DNA from: a virus
Lineage: Duplodnaviria > Caudoviricetes
DNA: 31,666 nucleotides
Virus record (IMG/VR): IMGVR_UViG_3300032322_003129
Coordinates: 1 to 31,666 of that record
Reading direction: 5' to 3' (one strand)
This document shows, in pieces, positions 10,901 through 26,720 of the stretch; positions within the stretch are counted from its first letter, which is position 1; every line of letters starts with the position of its first letter. Position numbers and translations under genes: made by a program. The notes beneath the pieces were generated by a model, which was not told the DNA's origin, did not search any database, and worked only from the letters and a program-made list of their open reading frames with translations.

Positions 10901-11331
10901 GATGCTAATTTATTTTCAAAAAAGTAAAAGTTCGTGATTTGTCCTTTTTCATTTTTATATTGACAAAGTTCAGGATAAATTTCCGATTTCAAAAGTTCTT
11001 TTAGTATTTTTCCGTAATTTGTATTTAAGAACTTTATTACAACCTTTAATGATATTAGTGATTTTTTTGAAATAATAAAAGTAAATTTTTGAATTACACC
11101 ACAAGCACTCTTCAAACTTGAAACATCAAAATCTTTATCTAAAAGAGATACATATTTTACACTTTGTGAATTATCAATTTCTACGTCAAATTGAATTTTA
11201 GTTTCTTCACTTAAAACCAGATTTAGATTTATGTCTCTTTTATTCTCTAACCAACCAGGGAATTTTGATAAATACTCTTCATAATTATCAATTTGGAGTC
11301 CTGTGACATCTATGTCAAAAGTATGTTCCAT
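10897..11331 (-). CDS. hypothetical protein
   Basis: 144 aa, overlapping its neighbours at start and stop codons. Confidence 0.7.
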   Translation of the reverse strand: MEHTFDIDVTGLQIDNYEEYLSKFPGWLENKRDINLNLVLSEETKIQFDVEIDNSQSVKYVSLLDKDFDVSSLKSACGVIQKFTFIISKKSLISLKVVIKFLNTNYGKILKELLKSEIYPELCQYKNEKGQITNFYFFENKLAS

Positions 11332-13211
11332 TAAAAAAGAGCAAAGTCTATTTGTTTTTTTTCTAGATCAACTGAAGATACAACTACTTTTAGTGGATCT
11401 CCGAGTCTTATTTTATTCCCGAATTCATCAGTAACAGTGAAATTATCAACATCTACTTTGATATTTTTTAATGATTGAAATCTAATTAAACCTTCACACT
11501 TACTATCTACAAGTTCAACAAACATTCCCCAGTCAGTAACACCAGATACAATTCCATCAAAGACTTGCCCCACTTTATCTTGTAAATACTCAGCCTGTTT
11601 GTATTTAATCGAATCTCTTTGAGCCTTTGATGCTACTAACTCTCTTTGAGAGCACCACTTTGCTTGTTCTTCAATTGGTGTAGGATTGCCTTGTTTTCTT
11701 TTTTGTAAAAAATCAAAAAGAATTCTATGTGTTATTAAATCTGGATATCTTCTTATTGGAGAGGTAAAATGTGAATAATGTGTAAATCCTAATCCATAGT
11801 GACCAATATTCTTAATTGTATATGTTGCTTTCGACATACAACGAGTCACTAATGTTTCTATCATATTTTCCTCAGGAGTTCCTTTAATATCCTTTAGGAG
11901 TTGATTAATTGATTTTTTCAACTCCGAGGATTCATCTTCCAATTTAAGTTCATGTCCGAAATTATTACAAACACTAACTAACTGTTGTAACTTCTCAATA
12001 TTTGGCGTATCGTGCACTCTATAAACATTAAATAAGTTAGAGTCAGATAGTAATTTTGCTACATATTTATTTGCAAGTAGCATAAACTCTTCAATTAACT
12101 TATTGGACTCTTTTTGATGTTTGAAATAAACTCCTATTGGTTTTTTATTATCTTCGGCTAATTGAAATCTTACTTCTATACCACCCATTTCAATAGAACC
12201 ATCTTTAATTCTTTTTTTCCTAATTTTTTGTGCTATTGAATCTAATATTTTAATTTCTTTAAAATAATCTCCGACTTTTCCCTCAATGATTTCTTGAGCT
12301 TCTTCGTATGTAAATCTTTTATTAGAGTGAATAATAGTTTTTCCAAACCACGTATCTAATACTTTACCTTCTAAGTCTAGAGTGAAAATAACTGAGAATG
12401 CTAATCTATCTTCATTTGGTTTCAATGAACATATACCATTACTAAGTCTTTCGGGCAACATTGGAACACATCTATCAACAAGATAAACAGATGTGGCTCT
12501 TTTGAAAGCTTCTTTATCTAATTGCGTATCAGGTTTTACATAATGACTAACATCTGCAATATGAACACCAACTTCTATTTTATTTTCATTGATAAACTCT
12601 ACAGATAGTGCGTCATCGAAATCTCTCGCATCAACTGGATCAATAGTGAATGTGTTAATGTTTCTGATATCTTTTCGACTCTTAATTTCTTTTTCAAAAA
12701 TTACTTCTGATATCAACTCTGATTCATTAATAACATCTTGTGGAAAATCTATCGGAAGACCATACTCTAACATTATAGAATTCATTTCTGCGTTATTGTC
12801 ACCAGAGTCACCTAAAATTTTAACTATTTTACCTTGTGGTGACTTTGAGTCTTCCCATTTTGTTAGTTCGACGACTACTTTTTGTCCATTTTCAGCTTTT
12901 AGTCCTCCTTTAATGTAAAAATCAACATTTATTTTAGAATTATCTGGTATAACAAATACTGATTTTTTTCCTATCTCTACCCTTCCAACAAATTCTGTCT
13001 TAAATCTTTCTACAACTTCGATGACTTTGGCTTCTAACCCCCTATCGGTTGTGAATGTTGTGACTCTAACTTTATCTAAATGTAGTGAGTTTAGAGTGTT
13101 TTTTTTATTAATAAATACTTCTTTATTGTTTATATTAATTGTGGAGTGTCTGTTTTTAGAAAATTCTATTTGGCCTGTAAAGAATTCATCTTCTATTTTG
13201 TTTTGTTTCAT
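11331..13211 (-). CDS. rnr: ribonuclease R (RNB family 3'-5' exoribonuclease)
   Basis: Cold-shock domains, catalytic TIDPVDARDFDDA, VHIADV, IEEFMLLAN, HFTSPIRRYPDL and a C-terminal S1 domain. Confidence 0.95.
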   Translation of the reverse strand: MKQNKIEDEFFTGQIEFSKNRHSTININNKEVFINKKNTLNSLHLDKVRVTTFTTDRGLEAKVIEVVERFKTEFVGRVEIGKKSVFVIPDNSKINVDFYIKGGLKAENGQKVVVELTKWEDSKSPQGKIVKILGDSGDNNAEMNSIMLEYGLPIDFPQDVINESELISEVIFEKEIKSRKDIRNINTFTIDPVDARDFDDALSVEFINENKIEVGVHIADVSHYVKPDTQLDKEAFKRATSVYLVDRCVPMLPERLSNGICSLKPNEDRLAFSVIFTLDLEGKVLDTWFGKTIIHSNKRFTYEEAQEIIEGKVGDYFKEIKILDSIAQKIRKKRIKDGSIEMGGIEVRFQLAEDNKKPIGVYFKHQKESNKLIEEFMLLANKYVAKLLSDSNLFNVYRVHDTPNIEKLQQLVSVCNNFGHELKLEDESSELKKSINQLLKDIKGTPEENMIETLVTRCMSKATYTIKNIGHYGLGFTHYSHFTSPIRRYPDLITHRILFDFLQKRKQGNPTPIEEQAKWCSQRELVASKAQRDSIKYKQAEYLQDKVGQVFDGIVSGVTDWGMFVELVDSKCEGLIRFQSLKNIKVDVDNFTVTDEFGNKIRLGDPLKVVVSSVDLEKKQIDFALF

Positions 13212-13792: not shown

Positions 13793-15889
13793 ATGAAACC
13801 GGTTTTAATTGTAGAAAATTCAACAAGTTCGTTGATCAGAGAAAGTGCTGATGCTAAGAATAAGTACGTTCTTGGTGGTATTTTTACTGAATTTGGTGTA
13901 AAAAACAGAAATGAGAGAATTTACACAGCTGACAAATTCGTACCTGCATTAAACGAATTAAACGAAAGAATGAACAGCTTAGGTGCTGTTTATGGTGAGT
14001 TTGACCATCCAGATGTTTTCGATACATCTTTGGCAAGAGCTTCTCACGTAATAACAAAAGCTAAATACATCTCAGAGAAAAATCTAGTAGAAGGTGAAAT
14101 AAGATTACTTAACACTTATTGGGGAAAAGAAGCTAAGGCATTAGTCGATGACGGGTGTCCTGTTTTTGTTTCTTCAAGAGCAGCAGGAATCACTGAATCT
14201 GATGGTTCAGTTTCATTGAAAAAACTTTTTACATATGACATCGTTGCAGACCCTGGATTTGCTTCGGCTAAAATGACAGTTAAGTCTATTAATGAGTCAC
14301 TAGGATTTAGTCCAAAATCTAACTTTAGGATATATGAAATGTCCGATGAGTCTAAAATAAATGAACTATTTAATATGAACAAAAACGAGTACGTTACCAA
14401 AAAACAATTGACTGATTATTCTCAGTATCTTGTTAAAGAGATAGCTTCTACGAAGAAAGAAGTTAAATCAGCGATTTCTAAAGGAAATATGGCTCCTAAG
14501 AAATTAGAACAACTATTAGAATACTATGATGAACTTAACAGCACTAATTCACAAGTTATCAAATATCTTGACTATTTAGCTGAAAAAATTCAAGTTGTAG
14601 TTAATGAGAACAAAAGTCTTAAAAACACAACTGAGAAATTAGTAAAACACAATGACTATTTAGCAGAGAATTTAGAGAAAGCTATTAACTATACTGAATA
14701 TGTTGCTGAAAGTCTTGACAAAAATATTGAGTATTCAGAATACTTAGCTGAAAATTTAGATAGAAATATTTCTTACTCTGAATATATCGCTGAGAACTTA
14801 GACAAAAATATCTCTTATTCAGAATATTTAGCAGAGAACTTAGACAAGAATATAGCTTACTCTGAGTACATCGCTGAAAACTTAGATAAGAATATCGCTT
14901 ACTCTGAGTACATCGCTGAAAATTTAGATAAGAATATCGCTTACTCTGAATACATCGCTGAACACGTTGATAATTCAATTGCGTACTCTGAATATTTAGC
15001 TGAGCATGTTGAAGGTAACATCGCTTACTCTGAATACATCGCTGAGCACTTAGATGACAATATCGCTTACTCTGAATACATCGCTGAAAATCTTGACAAA
15101 TCTATTTCTTACCAAGGGATGATTGTAGAAAGATTAAATGGTTCTAAATTAAATGAATCAGTTGGAGAAGAGGCTTTCCCATCGCTTTCAGCAGCAGGAT
15201 TTGAAAATGTTGAAGAGAAAGAAGAAGAGAAAGAAGAGGAAACTTACAATACTCACGAGAAAGAAGAAGAATACTCTGGTATCGCTGAAGTAAATCCATC
15301 TATGATTCATAACAAAGAAGAAGAAAAAGAAGAAGAAATGGTATCAAACTACGAGGTAACTGGTAAAGATGATACAGAACTTTCTGAATCTATTAATAAA
15401 TTAATTGAAGAAGCTAAAAAACGTAAAGTTTCTGAAACAACCGACTTGAATTTCTTGAAATTCTTAAATAAGTCACAAGTTGATAGTTTTTATGCATTAT
15501 CAGAAGACGAACAGGAAACTGTAAAACTTCACATAAACGAAAGAAGTTATTTTACTCAAAAAGAAGTATTATCTCTGATATCTGAAGCACTATCTACAAA
15601 AAATGAATCTCTTGAAGAAAGAGTAATCAGATTGATGCCTGAAAACGTTAAGCCAATCTGGGGTCAATTAAACGAATCTTCTAAAAAATCTATCCTTTCA
15701 CAGGCTAGACTTTACCCAGAAGAAGTTTTAATGACAGAAGGTCAAGTTGAACATTTTTGGACAACTAGAAACCTTAAGAAAAATGAATCTGTAACTAAGA
15801 AATTGGTTTCTCACGAAAGTTTAATTCAAGAAGATAAACTTTCTGATAAAGAAGCTCAAGCAATCTTAGAAAGATTCAAAAACATTTAA
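13793..15889 (+). CDS. prohead core protease (T4 gp21-like) fused to a scaffold-like coiled-coil region
   Basis: N-terminal NRNERIY, GEFDHP, VSSRAAG and YDIVADPGF protease motifs. The long acidic, repetitive C-terminal region precedes the capsid gene. Confidence 0.9.
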   Translation: MKPVLIVENSTSSLIRESADAKNKYVLGGIFTEFGVKNRNERIYTADKFVPALNELNERMNSLGAVYGEFDHPDVFDTSLARASHVITKAKYISEKNLVEGEIRLLNTYWGKEAKALVDDGCPVFVSSRAAGITESDGSVSLKKLFTYDIVADPGFASAKMTVKSINESLGFSPKSNFRIYEMSDESKINELFNMNKNEYVTKKQLTDYSQYLVKEIASTKKEVKSAISKGNMAPKKLEQLLEYYDELNSTNSQVIKYLDYLAEKIQVVVNENKSLKNTTEKLVKHNDYLAENLEKAINYTEYVAESLDKNIEYSEYLAENLDRNISYSEYIAENLDKNISYSEYLAENLDKNIAYSEYIAENLDKNIAYSEYIAENLDKNIAYSEYIAEHVDNSIAYSEYLAEHVEGNIAYSEYIAEHLDDNIAYSEYIAENLDKSISYQGMIVERLNGSKLNESVGEEAFPSLSAAGFENVEEKEEEKEEETYNTHEKEEEYSGIAEVNPSMIHNKEEEKEEEMVSNYEVTGKDDTELSESINKLIEEAKKRKVSETTDLNFLKFLNKSQVDSFYALSEDEQETVKLHINERSYFTQKEVLSLISEALSTKNESLEERVIRLMPENVKPIWGQLNESSKKSILSQARLYPEEVLMTEGQVEHFWTTRNLKKNESVTKKLVSHESLIQEDKLSDKEAQAILERFKNI
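14648..15109 (+). repeat. about 11 tandem 42-nt (14-aa) coding repeats, consensus YSEYIAENLDKNIA
   Basis: Visible in both protein and DNA (aatatcgcttactctgaatacatcgctgaa...). Confidence 0.9.
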
Positions 15890-18592: not shown

Positions 18593-18976
18593 ATGAATCA
18601 CTTAAAAAGATTTGAATCTAAAAAGGATAAATTTCCTGATATTCAAAAAAAAGAAATCGATGGGTTTACTATATTCATTGGTAGAGATGCTAAATCGAAT
18701 GATTATCTAACATTTAATGTTGCAGATAAAGAAGATATTTGGATGCATGTTAAAGGAAAACCAGGTTCTCATATAGTGATAAGAGTAAGAGAAAATCTAC
18801 CAACACCAGAAATAATTAAAATAGCTGCTAATTTATCCAAAAGAAACTCTAAAGCAAAGAATGATAATTCAACTACTATTGTTTATTGTCAAAGAAAATT
18901 TGTTAAAAAAGAACCTGGTATGAATGATGGTCAAGTAAAGGTAGATTACAAGAATGCAGAAGAAATTACAATTTAA
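18593..18976 (+). CDS. stand-alone NFACT RNA-binding (NFACT-R / DUF814) domain protein
   Basis: IFIGRDAKSNDYLT, DIWMHVKGKPGSHIVI, AANLS..NS and VYCQRKFVKK..G...GQV match the C-terminal domain of RqcH/FbpA/NEMF. Confidence 0.88.
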   Translation: MNHLKRFESKKDKFPDIQKKEIDGFTIFIGRDAKSNDYLTFNVADKEDIWMHVKGKPGSHIVIRVRENLPTPEIIKIAANLSKRNSKAKNDNSTTIVYCQRKFVKKEPGMNDGQVKVDYKNAEEITI

Positions 18977-20353: not shown

Positions 20354-20875
20354 ATGAAACTGAAAAAATACAATCAATTGTTGGAAGAAATCGATCCAAA
20401 AGACTGGGAAGACGATGATGATAATTTCTATAGAGAGGATGAGTATTCTTATCTTAATGATGCATTGGATAAGAGGTCTGCTTATGATGAAGAAGAAGAT
20501 GATTGGGAAGGACACAATAGATACGGACATGGTCCTTATGATGACGATGATTACGAATCTGGTGAAGAGCCCATCGAAGAAGATGATATGCAAAATTTAC
20601 TTTATCTTCTAAGAACAATGTTTAGAAATTCAGGTATAGAAGAGGTTTATGTTGAAAATAAAAAAATGGATATTACTATCACGGTTGCTGCAAGAAGAAG
20701 AGAAAGACTTAAAGATATAATAAACATCTTTGCGGTGGCTAATAAACTTAAAAAAGATATATTGGCTCAGTATGATTCTGAATTTGGAATGTGGGAAAGT
20801 AAAGAAGGTTCTCCGTTATTTGTTTTTAACTTCTACTATGATGAAGGGTTAGAAGATGATATGGCCCCTTTTTAA
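20354..20875 (+). CDS. hypothetical acidic protein
   Basis: 173 aa with an Asp/Glu-rich N-terminal half and the leader MKLKKYNQLLEE. Confidence 0.7.
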   Translation: MKLKKYNQLLEEIDPKDWEDDDDNFYREDEYSYLNDALDKRSAYDEEEDDWEGHNRYGHGPYDDDDYESGEEPIEEDDMQNLLYLLRTMFRNSGIEEVYVENKKMDITITVAARRRERLKDIINIFAVANKLKKDILAQYDSEFGMWESKEGSPLFVFNFYYDEGLEDDMAPF

Positions 20876-21240
20876 TCTAATAAGTCAGATAGATTAAGTT
20901 CTCTAGCAACTACCTTTGTAATATCACCCATGACAATATCTTCTAAATTTGTATAACTTTGGAAGTCAGCGATTGTATCTAATTCTTTTATTATGTGTAG
21001 ATTTTTATTATACCAACCATAGAAAATATCACAACAAACTTCTAACATATCTTCATAGGTGTAAAGATTTGAATACGATTCTTGAAAATTACACATCATT
21101 ATTTTAAGATCGACTGGATACTGGTTAAAATTGTAATTAATATTTTCAACTTCATAAGTAATCTGGAAAGAATTATTCCAATATAATACTGGCTGAAAGC
21201 CGAGTGATTGTATTTTATCTAAGTGTTCAGATATTTCCAT
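20872..21240 (-). CDS. hypothetical protein
   Basis: 122 aa ORF in a minus-strand operon. Confidence 0.65.
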   Translation of the reverse strand: MEISEHLDKIQSLGFQPVLYWNNSFQITYEVENINYNFNQYPVDLKIMMCNFQESYSNLYTYEDMLEVCCDIFYGWYNKNLHIIKELDTIADFQSYTNLEDIVMGDITKVVARELNLSDLLD

Positions 21241-21463
21241 CTAATATTTTTTTAATCTTTACTTCACGTTGGTCTATCAATTCTAAAGGTTCAATTATCA
21301 ACTCACCATCAGAAATCTTTAGTTGCCACTTTCTTCCAGTGACTTCATCTTTAAGTATTATTAGTTTTTCGATTGTGGTGTTTCCGATACAACCTACAGT
21401 AATCGCAGAAGCTGAGGAAGGTCCATTAACTGCGAATATGTTAGAATTAGATATAAATGACAT
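21227..21463 (-). CDS. hypothetical protein
   Basis: 78 aa ORF packed between the methylase and the next gene. Confidence 0.6.
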   Translation of the reverse strand: MSFISNSNIFAVNGPSSASAITVGCIGNTTIEKLIILKDEVTGRKWQLKISDGELIIEPLELIDQREVKIKKILDGNI

Positions 21464-21468
21464 AATGA

Positions 21469-22413
21469 TTATATTTTAATACCAGTGATTGGATTATAGT
21501 TCATAATTAACAACTCAACTCCTTTAGTTTGTTCTCCTTTTAGGTCAGAATTGTTACCACCCTGAGCTGAACTTCTGAATACTTCTTTTTCTGTCCAAAC
21601 ATATTGGTCTCTTGGTAAAAGTTCTTCTAAAAGTGGGAAATAATAATAAGATAGTGACCAACGACACTTAGTTTTCTTCAATAATTCTAATAGTCTTCTA
21701 TGAGAAGCGGGTCCAAATACACCATCAGCGTCTGCTCCATACCAGAAAAGTCTCTTAGCATCATCTTCACCTTTTTCCTCATTAAATCTTGCATAAGGTG
21801 GGTCTAAATAAAGATATGTATCTTCACTGTCGTATTTATTAATCAGTTCTTCAAAGTCAATATTATGAAATTCGGTGATAGACTGAAGTTTTTGAGTATA
21901 TTTATTTTTCTTTAACTTATCAATAAGAACATCTAATTTAAGTCTGTCTTTATCTTTTTTATAACCATTAAAACCTGCTCCTCTTGGATAAACAGAATTG
22001 TGAGCAGATGTGATTAAAAAAGCATAAATTGCAGCCTTCTTAAAATCACCTATTTCAAAATTCATATCATCTAAAAAAGTGTTTCTTTGGTATTTTTTAT
22101 AGATTCCTTTATAGAAGTCCCATTTTTTTAGAGGCTCAGTTTCTTCTGTTTTAAGTAATGTCTCCTTCATTCTTTCTAAATACTTTACAAATGTTTCAGG
22201 GTCTTGACAACACTTATATAAGTTCACCTGGTGACGATTTTTATCATTGTAAACAACTGTATCGAATTTAAGAGAATCGTCGTCCATATACGTTCCCATA
22301 GAACCTGAGAAAGGTTCTAAATATGTTTTGATTCCGGTCTTAGGAATCTTTGAGTTTATGAACTCTTGGAATACTGATGAACTCTTACCACCAAAATATG
22401 AAATACACGCCAT
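21469..22413 (-). CDS. DNA adenine methyltransferase (Dam/D12 class)
   Basis: SYFGGKS, YLEPFSGS, YND, YLDPPY and terminal ELLIMNY. Confidence 0.9.
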   Translation of the reverse strand: MACISYFGGKSSSVFQEFINSKIPKTGIKTYLEPFSGSMGTYMDDDSLKFDTVVYNDKNRHQVNLYKCCQDPETFVKYLERMKETLLKTEETEPLKKWDFYKGIYKKYQRNTFLDDMNFEIGDFKKAAIYAFLITSAHNSVYPRGAGFNGYKKDKDRLKLDVLIDKLKKNKYTQKLQSITEFHNIDFEELINKYDSEDTYLYLDPPYARFNEEKGEDDAKRLFWYGADADGVFGPASHRRLLELLKKTKCRWSLSYYYFPLLEELLPRDQYVWTEKEVFRSSAQGGNNSDLKGEQTKGVELLIMNYNPITGIKI

Positions 22414-22414
22414 A

Positions 22415-23236
22415 TTATTTTCTATATTTATTTTTATCTCTGGTTATAGATACTACTTTATCAAAAGTTTCTTTTTTTCTTTTAAGATAAAGTGTAGAGT
22501 TTTTGTATAAAAAGTCGTATATGTTTTCAACATCCGACAACCCTCCCCAATCTACTACATAATATGTTCCCTTAGGACATCTTATTTTATTTCTACCACT
22601 CAGATTACAATACTCTACCATCTTGTCATAATATTCTTTAATAAAGTCATAACTACCTGAACATATATTAACTTGACCTCTTTGTTTATTGTCTCTTTTA
22701 TCTGTTCTTAATGTTACACAACCATCACCGTCAAAAACACCTCTCATAAAATGATTTTGTAAATCGTTGGGAATAGTTGGATATTTAACAATCATTGTTT
22801 TATTTGAATGAATTCCCAAATTTTCAAGATCAATCTTGGTTTTATTAGACGATATACTAAAGCTTGAAATGTTTCTATTCTTAGATGTAAATACAACTCC
22901 ATCTGAATTAATATACTTTTTAAATTCATATAATATATATGTTTCCTTCTGTACTATCTTAATAGTATTTGTCTTATCAGAGACACAACCATCAGCAACA
23001 ATAAATCCTAAAAAGTAGGCTTTATCTTCAGTGTCTATAGTTTCAAAATAATCTTCATTGAATTTATATCTAACAACTTTAGATTTTTGTTCAATATTAT
23101 TTAACTTTAATAATTTATAATATTGTCTTAGAGAAATATCAAATTTTTTTGATATTTCTTTTTCTGTTATTCCTATTTTTCTTTGATTTATAATTTCTGA
23201 TTTTTCAGAATCAGAAAGGTCTTTTAATTTTCTCAT
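22415..23236 (-). CDS. free-standing LAGLIDADG homing endonuclease with N-terminal HTH
   Basis: AYFLGFIVADGCV and HFMRGVFDGDGCV dodecapeptide motifs, plus YLKRK. Confidence 0.85.
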   Translation of the reverse strand: MRKLKDLSDSEKSEIINQRKIGITEKEISKKFDISLRQYYKLLKLNNIEQKSKVVRYKFNEDYFETIDTEDKAYFLGFIVADGCVSDKTNTIKIVQKETYILYEFKKYINSDGVVFTSKNRNISSFSISSNKTKIDLENLGIHSNKTMIVKYPTIPNDLQNHFMRGVFDGDGCVTLRTDKRDNKQRGQVNICSGSYDFIKEYYDKMVEYCNLSGRNKIRCPKGTYYVVDWGGLSDVENIYDFLYKNSTLYLKRKKETFDKVVSITRDKNKYRK

Positions 23237-23294
23237 ATACTATATATAAAAATATATAGTTTTCCTCCGAAGTAATTACATAAACTATCGAAAA

Positions 23295-23807
23295 TTAAAA
23301 ACCATTTTTGTTTTTAATTATATCCTCTAATGATGGTCTTGTCTTTTGTTTTAAATTTAATCGAATATCCATAAGAATTTTTCCTAAATGATTATCACCT
23401 CTATCACCACACTTAGGACAAGAACAAGAACCCCAGAAATTGTCGTGCCAAAAATTACCTTCAATTAATTCTAAATCACCAGTAGATAGTAACATTTCTG
23501 ATAGTTTTTCATCATTGAACTTTTCTTTTACAGCAAAGTTCATTAATTCCAATTTTTTTTCTTCCCAGTCTTTTCTTACTTTGACTCTCTGTCCTATTTT
23601 TTTAACATCCGCAGGTAGTTTTACTTTAGTTATCATTTCTCTAAAATCACCAGCGGTGTAATAGTTACCATTTAAAAGTTGTATTTCAGTCACTTTCATA
23701 GCAACATAGTAGTGTTCAACAGATGGGTAGATTAATCCTTTATGTTGAATTTCACACGGATAAAAATTACTTAAAAATCCCCATCGACCTTCAAAACGTC
23801 TAATCAT
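23295..23807 (-). CDS. NADAR family protein (YbiA-like)
   Basis: FLSNFYP, YPSVEHYY, EKF, LLSTG..ELIEGN.WHDNFWG and NHLGKILMDIR. Confidence 0.9.
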   Translation of the reverse strand: MIRRFEGRWGFLSNFYPCEIQHKGLIYPSVEHYYVAMKVTEIQLLNGNYYTAGDFREMITKVKLPADVKKIGQRVKVRKDWEEKKLELMNFAVKEKFNDEKLSEMLLSTGDLELIEGNFWHDNFWGSCSCPKCGDRGDNHLGKILMDIRLNLKQKTRPSLEDIIKNKNGF

Positions 23808-23858
23808 ATGATTTATATGATTAAAAAGTCTTTAGTTTAACTTTTAATAAAAATGTGA

Positions 23859-24470
23859 TTATCCGAAATTTGAAGCTATCCAACCACTAAACTTTTTAAT
23901 CCAACTAGGATTTTGGTCGTCTTTTGCTTTCTCTTTAGCTAAATAAGATTCGGTTTCTTTATTATGTAGTATATAAGCTAGTTGCCATCCACCACCACCT
24001 TTAATAAGTAATCCTTTAGGATCCATACCATCAACTAAGGTCCAATTTGACTCAGATTTAATTCTTTGTTCGGCTTGTTCTTTTTTTATTTCTTCTGAAT
24101 TTAATTTTTCAATTATATCAAAAGGAACTTCCGCTCTCATCATCCATTCATGTCCTTCAAATTTATCCTTTGACCTTTTAACAATTGAATCATCAGTTGT
24201 CCAAAATTCATAAGTATAAGTAATAAATTTATCACCTGATTTATATGAACATCTAAAATCTTGAGCATTAACTTCTTTATCTTTAAGTTTTTCACCAGAA
24301 TCCACTGAAATATTAATCATATCCAAGAATAAATCTAAAACTAGTGACTTTTCTTTATTCTCTGTTGAAAACCAAAAAGTCTCTTCGTCTTTATCAGAAT
24401 CACCAGTAGCGGCAGGTAGTTTATAATTTTCATTTATAGAAAATTTATCAAAGTTTTTAATATTTTTCAT
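23859..24470 (-). CDS. hypothetical protein with capsid-targeting-like leader
   Basis: 203 aa starting MKNIKNFDKFSINE, with a late motif 4 nt upstream. Confidence 0.7.
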   Translation of the reverse strand: MKNIKNFDKFSINENYKLPAATGDSDKDEETFWFSTENKEKSLVLDLFLDMINISVDSGEKLKDKEVNAQDFRCSYKSGDKFITYTYEFWTTDDSIVKRSKDKFEGHEWMMRAEVPFDIIEKLNSEEIKKEQAEQRIKSESNWTLVDGMDPKGLLIKGGGGWQLAYILHNKETESYLAKEKAKDDQNPSWIKKFSGWIASNFG

Positions 24471-24546
24471 AACATATATATTAAATGAAAAAATAGAAAA
24501 AATGAGTTTTAAAACTAAATATATAAAAGAAAATTAAATTAGAATT

Positions 24547-25116
24547 ATGAAATATATTAAAACATTTGAAGGATTTTCTATTAATGAAGATGTTTCTAAT
24601 ATCGGTGGGATTTTTTCACTTATTAATGGAGAAATATCAAAATTATCAGAAGAGGAAATACAAAAACTTATGGACGATGCTAAAGCAATTTCAAATAAAT
24701 TAGGAGTTTCATTAGAACAACTACAAAATCCTGAAGTTGCAGTAAAAGCTATGATAGAAGAAACAGAAAATATCGAGACTTCTATTGAAGAAGGATGGTT
24801 ATCTGATAGCTGGGACTGGTTAAAAGGTAAAAGTGCTTCTTGGTACAGAACAGTAGCGAGAGTTGTTGGTTTTGGTGGAGCATTCACAAGTCTTGCTACA
24901 GCAATAGCAGCAGCTGCTATTGGTGGAGCGGAAAGAAATTCTTTCTCTCTTTACCTAAGAGATTTAACAGGTGTTGGTGAACTTGACAGAAATACACAAG
25001 CAGCGATATTTATGGCTGGATTAGCGGGTGTAGCAATTTCAGTAATAGCTGGCATAGCATTAGGTAACAAAGCAGATGATATTGAAAAAGCTGCTAAATA
25101 CGGAACAAAATTCTAA
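24547..25116 (+). CDS. hypothetical protein with capsid-targeting-like leader and two hydrophobic helices
   Basis: Starts MKYIKTFEGFSINE and has Ala/Gly-rich hydrophobic segments in the C-terminal half. Confidence 0.75.
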   Translation: MKYIKTFEGFSINEDVSNIGGIFSLINGEISKLSEEEIQKLMDDAKAISNKLGVSLEQLQNPEVAVKAMIEETENIETSIEEGWLSDSWDWLKGKSASWYRTVARVVGFGGAFTSLATAIAAAAIGGAERNSFSLYLRDLTGVGELDRNTQAAIFMAGLAGVAISVIAGIALGNKADDIEKAAKYGTKF

Positions 25117-25140
25117 TAATAATTTTTTATAAAAGATAAT

Positions 25141-25172
25141 AAAAAAACCGTCTCATTGAGACGGTTTTTTTT
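25141..25172. terminator. bidirectional intrinsic terminator between convergent genes
   Basis: aaaaaaaccgtctc-att-gagacggttttttt. Confidence 0.85.
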
Positions 25173-25503
25173 ATTTAGAGCTTTTGATTTCTTTCAAAGC
25201 TTTGATTACCATATCACATTCTTTACGAGTAGGTAACATATTTTTAGTATATTGACCTTTTACATAAGAAACATAGAAAATCAAATGTAAAACAAGGTAG
25301 AACAAGGAAACACCTGTTGAGAACCCATACATTGTTCCGGTGAATACAAATCCAATCAAAAAAGGAATTGTAGAAACCACAAACAAAAAAGCTTCTGTAA
25401 ATAATACTCTAACAATTGAGAAAAAAATAATACTGTTTCTCAAATCAGATAAAGAATAGTCTTTGTTTTGGTACTCTTGTTTAATTTCGTTAAATGTTTT
25501 CAT
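25171..25503 (-). CDS. hypothetical membrane protein
   Basis: Two hydrophobic segments. ATG at 25503 is preferred over 25560 because a promoter occupies 25547-25577. Confidence 0.65.
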   Translation of the reverse strand: MKTFNEIKQEYQNKDYSLSDLRNSIIFFSIVRVLFTEAFLFVVSTIPFLIGFVFTGTMYGFSTGVSLFYLVLHLIFYVSYVKGQYTKNMLPTRKECDMVIKALKEIKSSK

Positions 25504-25546
25504 AATGTAGTGGATTTTATATTTATTACTTACTCGTTTATAAATA

Positions 25547-25577
25547 CAAATATAAGACATTTATTTTAATAAACAAA
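25547..25577 (-). promoter_or_regulatory. Bacteroidota-type housekeeping promoter (TTTG-N19-TATATTTG)
   Basis: Exact match to the -33 TTTG / -7 TAnnTTTG consensus with a 19-nt spacer. Confidence 0.6.
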
Positions 25578-25607
25578 AAAATCTCACTAAAAAGTGAGAT
25601 TTTTTTT
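25575..25607 (-). terminator. intrinsic terminator downstream of the tmRNA
   Basis: aaaaaaatctcact-aaaa-agtgagattttttt, a few nt past the tmRNA 3' end. Confidence 0.85.
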
Positions 25608-25610
25608 CTT

Positions 25611-25993
25611 GTGGAGATGACGTTGTACTGCCCAACGTGTCTTTTTCAGTTGTTAATAATTATTCGTTTACAGGCTTAGTAAATTTTTATAAACTTACAA
25701 ACTTTTTACTTTTTTTGAGAAACTCTAATAAGTAACAAAAAACCATTTCACCCTTTTAGTCTTGTGTGAAACAAGTTGGAGAATTTTTGTTCAGCTTGTA
25801 ATCTATTAGACTAAAGCAGGCTCTTCTACCAAGAGCATGTTGTTTTGTAGAGCCGCTACTAAATCTTCACGGGTTGCTACTTCATTTGTGTTGCCATTTA
25901 CGACATCTGTCACCTAATTTATAAACCGGTCATTTGACCACCCGGTACCTGCATAATTACCACCAGACTACAAATCAATTCTATGACATCCCC
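25611..25993 (-). ncRNA. ssrA: tmRNA (transfer-messenger RNA), one-piece
   Basis: 5' GGGGATG pairs with 3' CATCTCC-A (G3:U70, A73 alanine identity). T-arm ACGTTG-GGCAGTA-CAACGT is preceded by GAC. Helix 2 (TAATTATGCAGG / CCTGTA...ATAATTA) is present. Internal tag frame TAAAT-GGC...TAA TAG. About 383 nt, with a downstream terminator. Confidence 0.92.
25806..25895 (-). other. tmRNA tag reading frame: (A)GNTNEVATREDLVAALQNNMLLVEEPALV*
   Basis: Resume context TAAAT|GGC follows the predicted first pseudoknot region. The frame ends in tandem TAA TAG. Confidence 0.75.
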
Positions 25994-26010
25994 AAAGTGT
26001 TAATTATTTA

Positions 26011-26041
26011 CAAATGTATATATAATATGGATTATAACAAA
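26011..26041 (-). promoter_or_regulatory. tmRNA promoter: Bacteroidota-type TTTG-N19-TACATTTG overlapping a phage ATATATA motif
   Basis: TTTG 26041-26038, TACATTTG 26018-26011, ATATATA 26023-26017. Confidence 0.6.
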
Positions 26042-26066
26042 AAAAGTTGACTGGATTTTTTACAGA

Positions 26067-26720
26067 TTATTTCTTCAACGTAATCGTAACAACGGCTGTT
26101 GTACTACCCCACTCAGATCTGGAAATTTCCTTTTCAACATTAAATTTAGAAAAATCTATCCCTCTGAACAGACCATTCCACTTTCTATCTGTATAAGAAC
26201 TACTATCATCAAATCCATTACAATTTACAACAATCTTTAATTCGCCCTTGTATATCCTTTTAGTCATGCAATTACTAAAATCACTTTTAGATGCGTTTGT
26301 TCTTTTCGACATTTCGTTATAAAGTTGTTGAATTAAAAATAAATCACCCTCTACTTTAGTCTTTTGTATAAAAGTTACAACTATATGATGTCTCCAATTT
26401 GTATTTATGGAAACTCTGCTAGATCCTAATCGATTTTTTAGAGATATCATCTCTTCTAAGAAGTCCCAAAATTTAGGATCAATAATTTGTTCAGTATAAC
26501 CACCAGCTTCTCCTAGTTGAAAAGAGTTTTTAAAATTTATATTCATTGATTTGAAACCAGAGTATTCACCAGATGTTATTGTTCTTGATTCAGTTATTGA
26601 ATATTCAATTCCTAAGTCTTTAACAGGTAAAAGTAGTTCATCTAATTCATCTTTCGATAAATCTACAACATCATCTTGTGATTCAGTTATATAATTAAAG
26701 AACTTTTGTAGATGTTTCAT
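26067..26720 (-). CDS. hypothetical protein with capsid-targeting-like leader
   Basis: 217 aa starting MKHLQKFFNYITES. Confidence 0.7.
   Translation of the reverse strand: MKHLQKFFNYITESQDDVVDLSKDELDELLLPVKDLGIEYSITESRTITSGEYSGFKSMNINFKNSFQLGEAGGYTEQIIDPKFWDFLEEMISLKNRLGSSRVSINTNWRHHIVVTFIQKTKVEGDLFLIQQLYNEMSKRTNASKSDFSNCMTKRIYKGELKIVVNCNGFDDSSSYTDRKWNGLFRGIDFSKFNVEKEISRSEWGSTTAVVTITLKK

Follow-up and report, generated by a model that had tools for sequence, protein, structure and literature searches.

Does a gene-free gap in a phage genome fragment encode a transfer-messenger RNA (tmRNA), and if so, how did it come by a T-loop, GGCAGUA, that had been taken for the signature of the permuted two-piece tmRNAs of Alphaproteobacteria? 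The window, meaning the whole stretch of 31,666 nt that was analyzed, is a 31.7-kb virus record that is 8% complete, and from 25560 to 26067 it holds no ORF of at least 60 aa. A first-pass annotation had placed in this gap a one-piece, non-permuted tmRNA with G3·U70 and A73, a GGCAGUA T-loop, a 6-bp T-stem and an incompletely encoded CCA. The locus is a real phage tmRNA, probably a working one. We are fairly confident that it is a one-piece tmRNA and predicted ribosome rescuer whose loop derives from a canonical loop within its own family, and whose elbow is kept by the replacement of G18 by A and of U55 by G.

A one-piece tmRNA gene and its surroundings

The features of the locus are the following:
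25611..25993, minus strand: one-piece tmRNA gene, G1 to C74 (direct reading, RF00023 match, covariation)
25987..25993, minus strand: 5' strand of the acceptor stem, holding G3 of the alanine identity pair G3·U70 (98.5% of cells paired, 3/7 pairs change on both sides)
25981..25982, minus strand: D-loop dinucleotide AG (tRNA positions 18-19), which is GG in canonical-loop tmRNAs; putative partner of T-loop G55 and C56
25947..25974, minus strand: 5' strand of helix P2, partner 25642-25675 (three sub-helices, in which 5/6, 8/9 and 3/5 pairs change on both sides)
25909..25946, minus strand: pseudoknot PK1 (two helices, in which 2/5 and 3/3 pairs change on both sides)
25806..25895, minus strand: tag reading frame, 29 codons and UAA, containing two short covarying hairpins (frame reading, pN/pS)
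25642..25675, minus strand: 3' strand of helix P2 (covariation)
25620..25638, minus strand: T-arm, read as a 6-bp stem and a GGCAGUA loop at 25632-25626 (direct reading, covariation)
25611..25619, minus strand: 3' strand of the acceptor, discriminator A73 and C74; C75-A76 not encoded (direct reading)
25575..25606, minus strand: intrinsic terminator-like hairpin of 14 pairs, U-rich on both sides (hairpin scan)
26011..26041, minus strand: Bacteroidota-type promoter pattern (TTTG, 19 nt, TAnnTTTG), stopping 17 nt before G1 (motif match)

Read directly from the sequence, G1 lies at 25993 and the 7-bp acceptor is GGGGAUG/CAUCUCC with G3·U70. A73 is at 25612 and C74 at 25611, and the next letters are A-A, so that CCA is not encoded and the mature RNA would measure 385 nt after CCA completion. 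The T-stem ACGUUG/CAACGU (25638-25620) closes GGCAGUA. The 5' acceptor strand lies 381 nt upstream, with none downstream, which is the one-piece order. RF00023, the one-piece model, aligns over its full length (27.1 bits against a cut-off of 47; E 5.8e-9), and permuted-tmRNA models are absent from the 22 Rfam matches. The one-piece call with its alanine identity elements, the loop, the partial CCA and the non-permuted order that had been proposed are all confirmed by these readings, as is the suspicion that finders may miss the gene: ARAGORN returns 0 genes in the window, and Rfam at its gathering cut-off returns 0 matches.

The locus combines features present in standard tmRNAs (7-bp acceptor with G3·U70 and A73, T stem-loop, P2, PK1 and tag frame) with the absence of two others, a canonical UUCRANY T-loop and an Rfam score above the gathering cut-off. 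The UUCRANY loop is not defining for one-piece tmRNA, because 115 bacterial one-piece genes described below lack it as well. In the PK2-PK4 region, two 3-bp covarying helices are recovered 3' of the tag and nothing longer. Folded as a single sequence, the gene does no better than its shuffles (z -0.69; 24/100 shuffles as good), and the structural support therefore rests on comparison with relatives.

The window encodes a T4-like portal, prohead protease and capsid, along with RNase R, an NFACT-R protein, NADAR and a DNA adenine methylase. Its capsid is 75.0% and 74.4% identical to the capsids of LR756502 (642 kb) and LR745206 (634 kb), and these genomes carry tmRNA copies that are 72% and 82% identical, respectively, with shared flanking genes. 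Judged by its capsid and neighbors, which stand close to those of the 634 and 642 kb genomes, the window is a fragment of a Mahaphage-like giant phage. Genomes of these lengths belong to the Mahaphage clade, with predicted Bacteroidetes hosts, in the study of Al-Shayeb et al. 2020 (PMC7162821), which reported huge-phage tmRNA and SmpB and assigned tmRNAs with ARAGORN; the term "tmRNA" has 0 occurrences in the covered parts of its supplements. ARAGORN misses the tmRNA copies in both the 634 and 642 kb genomes, and an RF00023 search of LR745206 misses that genome's own tmRNA. SmpB is found above cut-off in 4/4 large relatives and is absent from the 31.7-kb, 8%-complete window; CCA-enzyme-like matches also occur in 4/4 large relatives, all below the family cut-off.

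The neighborhood differs in arrangement among these phages. Compared with LR745206 and LR756502, the block 20872-25993 (tmRNA, NADAR, methylase) has the inverted orientation; in those two genomes the tmRNA lies on the capsid strand directly 3' of a homolog of ORF 20354-20875. RNase R (window 11331-13211) and a stand-alone NFACT-R RNA-binding protein (18593-18976), members of families linked to ribosome rescue or non-stop mRNA decay, are encoded in the same fragment, and the NFACT-R gene adjoins the capsid gene in both large relatives. The prohead protease gene (window 13793-15889) contains a long tandem peptide repeat of ~14 residues.

The pattern matched at 26041-26011 is one that we take to be the Bacteroidota-type promoter consensus. 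It occurs 3 times in the window against 1.25 expected, a count reached by 11/100 shuffles, and is thus not enriched window-wide; its support comes from its placement and from the upstream regions of family members, where TAnnTTTG is present in 41/70 and the full pattern in 33/70. A sigma-70 scan finds no site on the tmRNA strand. A second Bacteroidota-type pattern (25547-25577, minus strand) overlaps the tmRNA terminator and would drive a 129-aa ORF at 25560-25171.

In 7 metatranscriptome runs the gene is covered by contigs from relatives, and the flanks receive no more than scattered, short matches of low depth. These contigs, which come from relatives, cannot show ends, strand or level, and their uncovered stretches are no evidence; they are weak support for expression, the thin flank cover possibly arising from divergence. 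No CCA-bearing end is found among them. One contig ends at 25610 with loose letters, which resemble what is presumably sequencing adapter; it is the one weak indication that the RNA ends near C74, and it shows no CCA; in run X17, which is possibly DNA, a contig continues past the tmRNA 3' end.

The phage tmRNA family and its long tag

A tag-motif scan, blind to the T-arm, uncovered at least 119 loci. Once earlier loci were added, parsing gave 72 distinct full-length genes, of which 71 were retained, L402 being excluded from all family counts for its mis-parsed ends; a further 14 partial matches were also dropped, as were 20 classed as non-family, two of which, L397 and L411, are canonical-loop members. 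Across 59 relatives the helices proposed for this gene do covary: 96.3% of cells pair and 43/55 pairs change on both sides, against 82.9% paired with 28 two-sided pairs in shuffles and 33-46% paired in slid controls, in a test that favors its helices since most were picked from the same alignment. The acceptor, P2, PK1, two tag hairpins and the T-stem covary well above both controls. All 71 parsed members have G3·U70 and A73, as called by a parser that preferred G3·U70. CCA is encoded in 5/71 members; as 45/106 canonical viral tmRNAs likewise do not encode it, its omission from the family is an ordinary feature.

The tag, which together with the D-loop covariation discussed below was absent from the first-pass annotation, resumes at a Gly codon after GUAAAU, begins Gly-Asn, ends Ala-Leu-Val and stops at UAA, and its length is 27-30 codons in 71/71 members. 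For the 31 distinct tags that have 29 codons, pN/pS comes to 0.39 in frame versus 1.34 and 2.23 in the other frames; internal stops occur in 0/31 in the tag frame versus 31/31 and 30/31 in the others, and all 31 end in UAA. The tag frame is under purifying selection. Decay into a non-functional tmRNA, as could be read from the low Rfam score, the missing ARAGORN call and the unencoded CCA, is scarcely credible in view of this open and selected frame, the compensatory changes, the conserved promoter and terminator and the presence in RNA libraries, all the more so as a missing CCA is shared by so many canonical viral genes.

At 29 codons, the tag is about three times the usual length, which is 10 residues (PMC11915505). 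Only 4/71 tags end Leu-Ala and none Ala-Ala. Both properties would suit a decoy or regulator that titrates host SmpB or competes with host tmRNA, its long tag going unread by host proteases and so sparing or marking phage products, and a phage gene consisting of the tRNA domain only is known to inhibit tmRNA in E. coli (PMC4131195, PMC11915505). We nonetheless regard such a role as unlikely. An SmpB encoded by the relatives themselves fits use better than titration; the last residue is small or hydrophobic in 71/71 tags (Ala, Val, one Ser); and long tags are not peculiar to this family, tags of 8-35 residues being on record (PMC3968760) and 20/113 canonical-loop viral tags among the matches listed reaching 18 residues or more.

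In one subclade (L390, L392, L403, L435, L446, L453, L462, L471, L492 and L497), the junction at the top of P2, where GAU...AGAC is otherwise conserved, reads GCC...GUAC, which is another compensated change close to the SmpB site. A 735 kb phage (LR756501; L525:1272-1844, minus strand) carries a tmRNA with a 33-codon tag whose T-loop is split by a group I intron (RF00028, 96 bits), and group I introns of this kind are described in tmRNAs of bacterial phyla (PMC11915505). In a 636 kb genome (LR756504; L520), the T-arm has five pairs and an 8-nt loop, with a 24-codon tag, and Lak-C1 (L521) has a canonical T-loop and a 10-codon tag and is also missed by ARAGORN.

Distribution and origin of the GGCAGUA loop

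For the permuted tmRNAs that contain GGCAGUA in the curated collection, the label "alphaproteobacterial" is one that we assume. GGCAGUA is present in curated permuted tmRNAs (PMC11915505 supplement, 30/38 places covered), once with a 6-bp stem (LMMU01000003.1). As a signature of two-piece alphaproteobacterial genes, which is how it had first been described, the loop fails. A two-ended GGCRGUR pattern run over 185,579 bacterial genomes, reaching genes of ~351-381 nt with 5-bp T-stems and thus leaving 6-bp stems and longer Bacteroidota genes outside, gave at least 120 loci, or an estimated ~260 stretches as a lower bound. Among the matches listed, 115/119 parsed loci have the one-piece order with perfect acceptor and T-stems; L230 is unparsed, the 4 imperfect matches were left out, and L142 (Alphaproteobacteria), which is counted among the 115, may in fact be permuted and have acquired its 5' partner by chance. 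The 115 span at least 8 named phyla among the matches listed (Thermoleophilia 50, Saccharimonadota 13, Gemmatimonadota 9, Myxococcota 7, Omnitrophota 4 and Elusimicrobiota 3 among them), with 17 unlabeled and none labeled Bacteroidota. Many Saccharimonadota GGC-loop tags are long, at ~19-24 residues.

The GGCRGUR loop is rare but recurrent in one-piece tmRNAs. The earlier supposition that it is not common there survives as to rarity (~260 stretches among 185,579 genomes, a lower bound) and falls as to recurrence, and since one-piece genes with the loop are widespread, the headline of the first-pass annotation is weakened. Among viruses, GGC loops with five pairs number 24 loci against ~1300 stretches with a canonical loop, two counts whose patterns differ by one letter and of which the larger may include many host genes at prophage ends. 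A description of GGCAGUA in one-piece tmRNAs, or of covariation between positions 18 and 55, was not found in the open-access literature, and older subscription papers or supplements may hold one.

Gene finders are affected unevenly. Among the matches listed, ARAGORN recovers 113/120 canonical-loop viral loci, 1/120 bacterial GGC-loop loci and 0/24 viral GGC-loop loci, and within the family it recovers 4/60 genes. Bacterial GGC-loop genes pass Rfam in 7/7 cases tested; the family members that pass its cut-off are 2/13, both with canonical loops. Permuted phage tmRNAs with GGCRGUR are many, and ARAGORN finds 6/39 of them; six-pair T-stems are present in two (L012, L032), and several carry long tags.

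Within the phage family, the 71 members display 23 T-loop sequences, from GGCAGUA (28 members) to the canonical UUCGAAU and UUCGAGU, on T-arms of 6+7 (stem and loop; 50 members), 5+7 (9), 5+8 (5) and other geometries. A family tree that leaves out the acceptor, D-loop and T-arm requires 6 changes at position 55, at least 4 of them on well-supported branches, with returns to U55 inside the six-pair GGC clade, and 2 changes in stem length. Within the tRNA-like domain no other part is as labile as the T-arm, and the 6-bp stem is a clade-specific elaboration. All six outgroups carry U55. The tree is not resolved at its base, and the outgroups, picked for long tags and canonical loops, sit on long branches, so that gain rather than loss of the loop is something that we infer. 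A family-core profile (E<0.001) matches 11/120 canonical-loop viral loci and 0/120 bacterial and 0/24 viral GGC-loop loci; the nearest outsiders to the family are canonical-loop viral tmRNAs. GGCAGUA likely arose within the phage family from a canonical loop.

This variety of loops, canonical ones included, and the repeated changes at position 55 favor convergence over a deep lineage. Of the three origins that the first-pass annotation had offered, convergence is the best; the deep-branching lineage is contradicted by close members with canonical loops and by the canonical-loop nearest outsiders. A related possibility is that the gene or its tRNA-like domain is a re-permuted tmRNA of alphaproteobacterial type, or a relic of a deep GGCAGUA lineage. 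The loop is identical to that of the curated permuted tmRNAs, including the one with the 6-bp stem, permuted phage tmRNAs with GGCAGUA are abundant and two have six-pair stems, and there is a precedent for re-permutation in Jakoba libera mitochondria (PMC3590771). We judge this origin very improbable: canonical loops occur in members that share the tag and core, neither permuted phage loci nor bacterial GGC-loop loci are among the top 70 family-profile matches, the body of the gene is that of a complete one-piece tmRNA, matched end to end by RF00023 and by none of the permuted models, and its resume codon is Gly versus Ala or Val in permuted phage genes with readable tags. Re-permuted and deep-relic origins are largely refuted, which leaves some room for the final 30 nt by themselves to be recombinant.

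The probable emergence of GGCAGUA from a canonical loop is accompanied by a change in the D-loop (positions in tRNA numbering). Among the 71 members, D-loop AG occurs with G55 in 50 and GG with U55 in 9, the combinations AG with U55 and GG with G55 are at 0, UG occurs with U55 in 7 and with G55 in 2, and 3 went unparsed by the script; by eye, two of these are AG with G55 and one has D-loop AA with U56. C56 is present in 70/71 members, the exception being the one with AA and U56. Outside the family, among the matches listed, D-loop AG accompanies 113/115 bacterial GGC-loop genes, 21/21 viral five-pair genes and 31/31 permuted phage genes, and GG accompanies 106/106 canonical-loop viral genes. 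Independent contrasts within the family are only 3, all in the same direction (p 0.25), and the strength of the 18-55 rule therefore comes from its recurrence across lineages. The nine UG members, with either U55 or G55, indicate that the 18-55 contact is not always needed. This pattern suggests that an A18·G55 contact replaces G18·U55 beside a kept G19-C56 pair. One-piece tmRNA depends on contacts between its D- and T-loops to bind SmpB and to function, and the E. coli T-loop bears m5U and pseudouridine (PMC3968760); GGCAGUA, which has neither U54 nor U55, cannot carry them.

In the T-stem, the sixth (outer) pair is A-U in 50/50 six-pair members and never covaries, whereas inner pairs 2-5 do. 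The 6-bp stem of the first-pass annotation is accordingly upheld as to its two extra bases, which are real, and their pairing is likely; if paired, they would extend the acceptor-T arm to 13 bp.

An arms race could also drive such changes, if escape variants are selected by host nucleases or modifying toxins recognizing the canonical T-loop or the 12-bp arm, with the D-loop change as the price of the fold. The 23 loop variants with their repeated switches would fit, GGC-type loops recur in several unrelated phage tmRNA groups, and CdiA-CT E479 is a tRNase whose cleavage site in the T-loop falls between the conserved T and the pseudouridine (PMC9086364). That toxin, however, serves competition in Burkholderia and is not an anti-phage defense, and our literature search found no Bacteroidota defense of the T-loop-cutting kind. 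In many bacterial phyla, chromosomal tmRNAs are fixed for the same loop, canonical loops prevail among viruses (~1300 stretches against 24 five-pair GGC loci), and reversions to U55 occur inside the GGC clade. Defense evasion, the third option of the first-pass annotation, has no positive evidence, and we consider it quite unlikely.

Comparison with known tmRNAs and proposed function

The phage gene resembles the one-piece SsrA tmRNA (RF00023), which acts with SmpB, in gene order, 7-bp acceptor, G3·U70, A73, stemless D-loop, P2, PK1, resume motif, tag frame with stop, and C56. It differs in having GGCAGUA for UUCRANY, D-loop AG for GG, a T-stem of 6 bp for 5, U-A for the usual C-G at the top of P2, a 29-codon tag ending Ala-Leu-Val and an AU-rich body scoring below the Rfam cut-off. 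With bacterial one-piece GGCRGUR tmRNAs it shares the one-piece order, the loop type, D-loop AG and invisibility to ARAGORN (1/120 found among those listed), but these have a 5-bp T-stem, as set by the search pattern, mostly short tags ending in Ala, Rfam scores that pass, and no detectable core similarity to the phage family. Permuted two-piece tmRNAs (RF01849/RF04321) and their phage versions, of which that of Methylophilales phage Melnitz is an example (PMC9004378), have GGCAGUA, D-loop AG (31/31 in phages) and in a few cases a 6-bp T-stem; they differ in circular permutation, which the phage gene here does not have, a short coding piece and an Ala or Val resume codon. The huge-phage tmRNA and SmpB of PMC7162821 are likewise phage-borne trans-translation genes in the Mahaphage clade, with T-arm and tag not described in the parts covered, and a curated database holds 79 phage tmRNAs (PMC11915505). 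The gene varies on a system that is well known, and nothing so far points to a new function; what is distinctive is its probable 13-bp arm, a natural series of elbow variants, a long selected tag and a blind spot of gene finders.

In the proposed mechanism, transcription would run from the Bacteroidota-type promoter to the terminator, as the motifs and the relatives' RNA in metatranscriptome contigs suggest. The transcript would be cut at G1, trimmed at its 3' end and completed with CCA, possibly by the phage CCA-enzyme-like protein. Its identity elements G3·U70 and A73 are present, and alanine charging is predicted from them. At the elbow, G19-C56 would be kept and G18·U55 exchanged for A18·G55, a geometry suggested by the covariation observed. 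With SmpB, which relatives encode themselves, the tmRNA is predicted to enter stalled ribosomes and resume at the Gly codon, and the product would gain Ala and 29 residues, given that the frame is under selection and is predicted to be translated. The hydrophobic end of the tag would likely direct the product to a protease. At best a doubtful possibility is that Mahaphage-type phages run a private circuit from these parts, in which a tmRNA with a 13-bp arm and modification-free elbow, a phage CCA enzyme and SmpB, a 29-residue tag and a phage or re-aimed host protease let the phage control the fate of stalled proteins, with its tmRNA escaping attackers of the host's.

Since ARAGORN misses most GGC-loop genes and most members of this family, tmRNA counts are too low in giant phages and in several bacterial phyla. 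GGCAGUA is unusable as a marker of alphaproteobacterial descent. The 23 T-loops with their matching D-loop states form a natural mutant series for the elbow (A18·G55 versus G18·U55), and the family is a series for the tolerance of RNase P, CCA enzyme, EF-Tu and SmpB toward a 13-bp arm. A long tag under selection makes testable the old question of why phages carry tmRNA.
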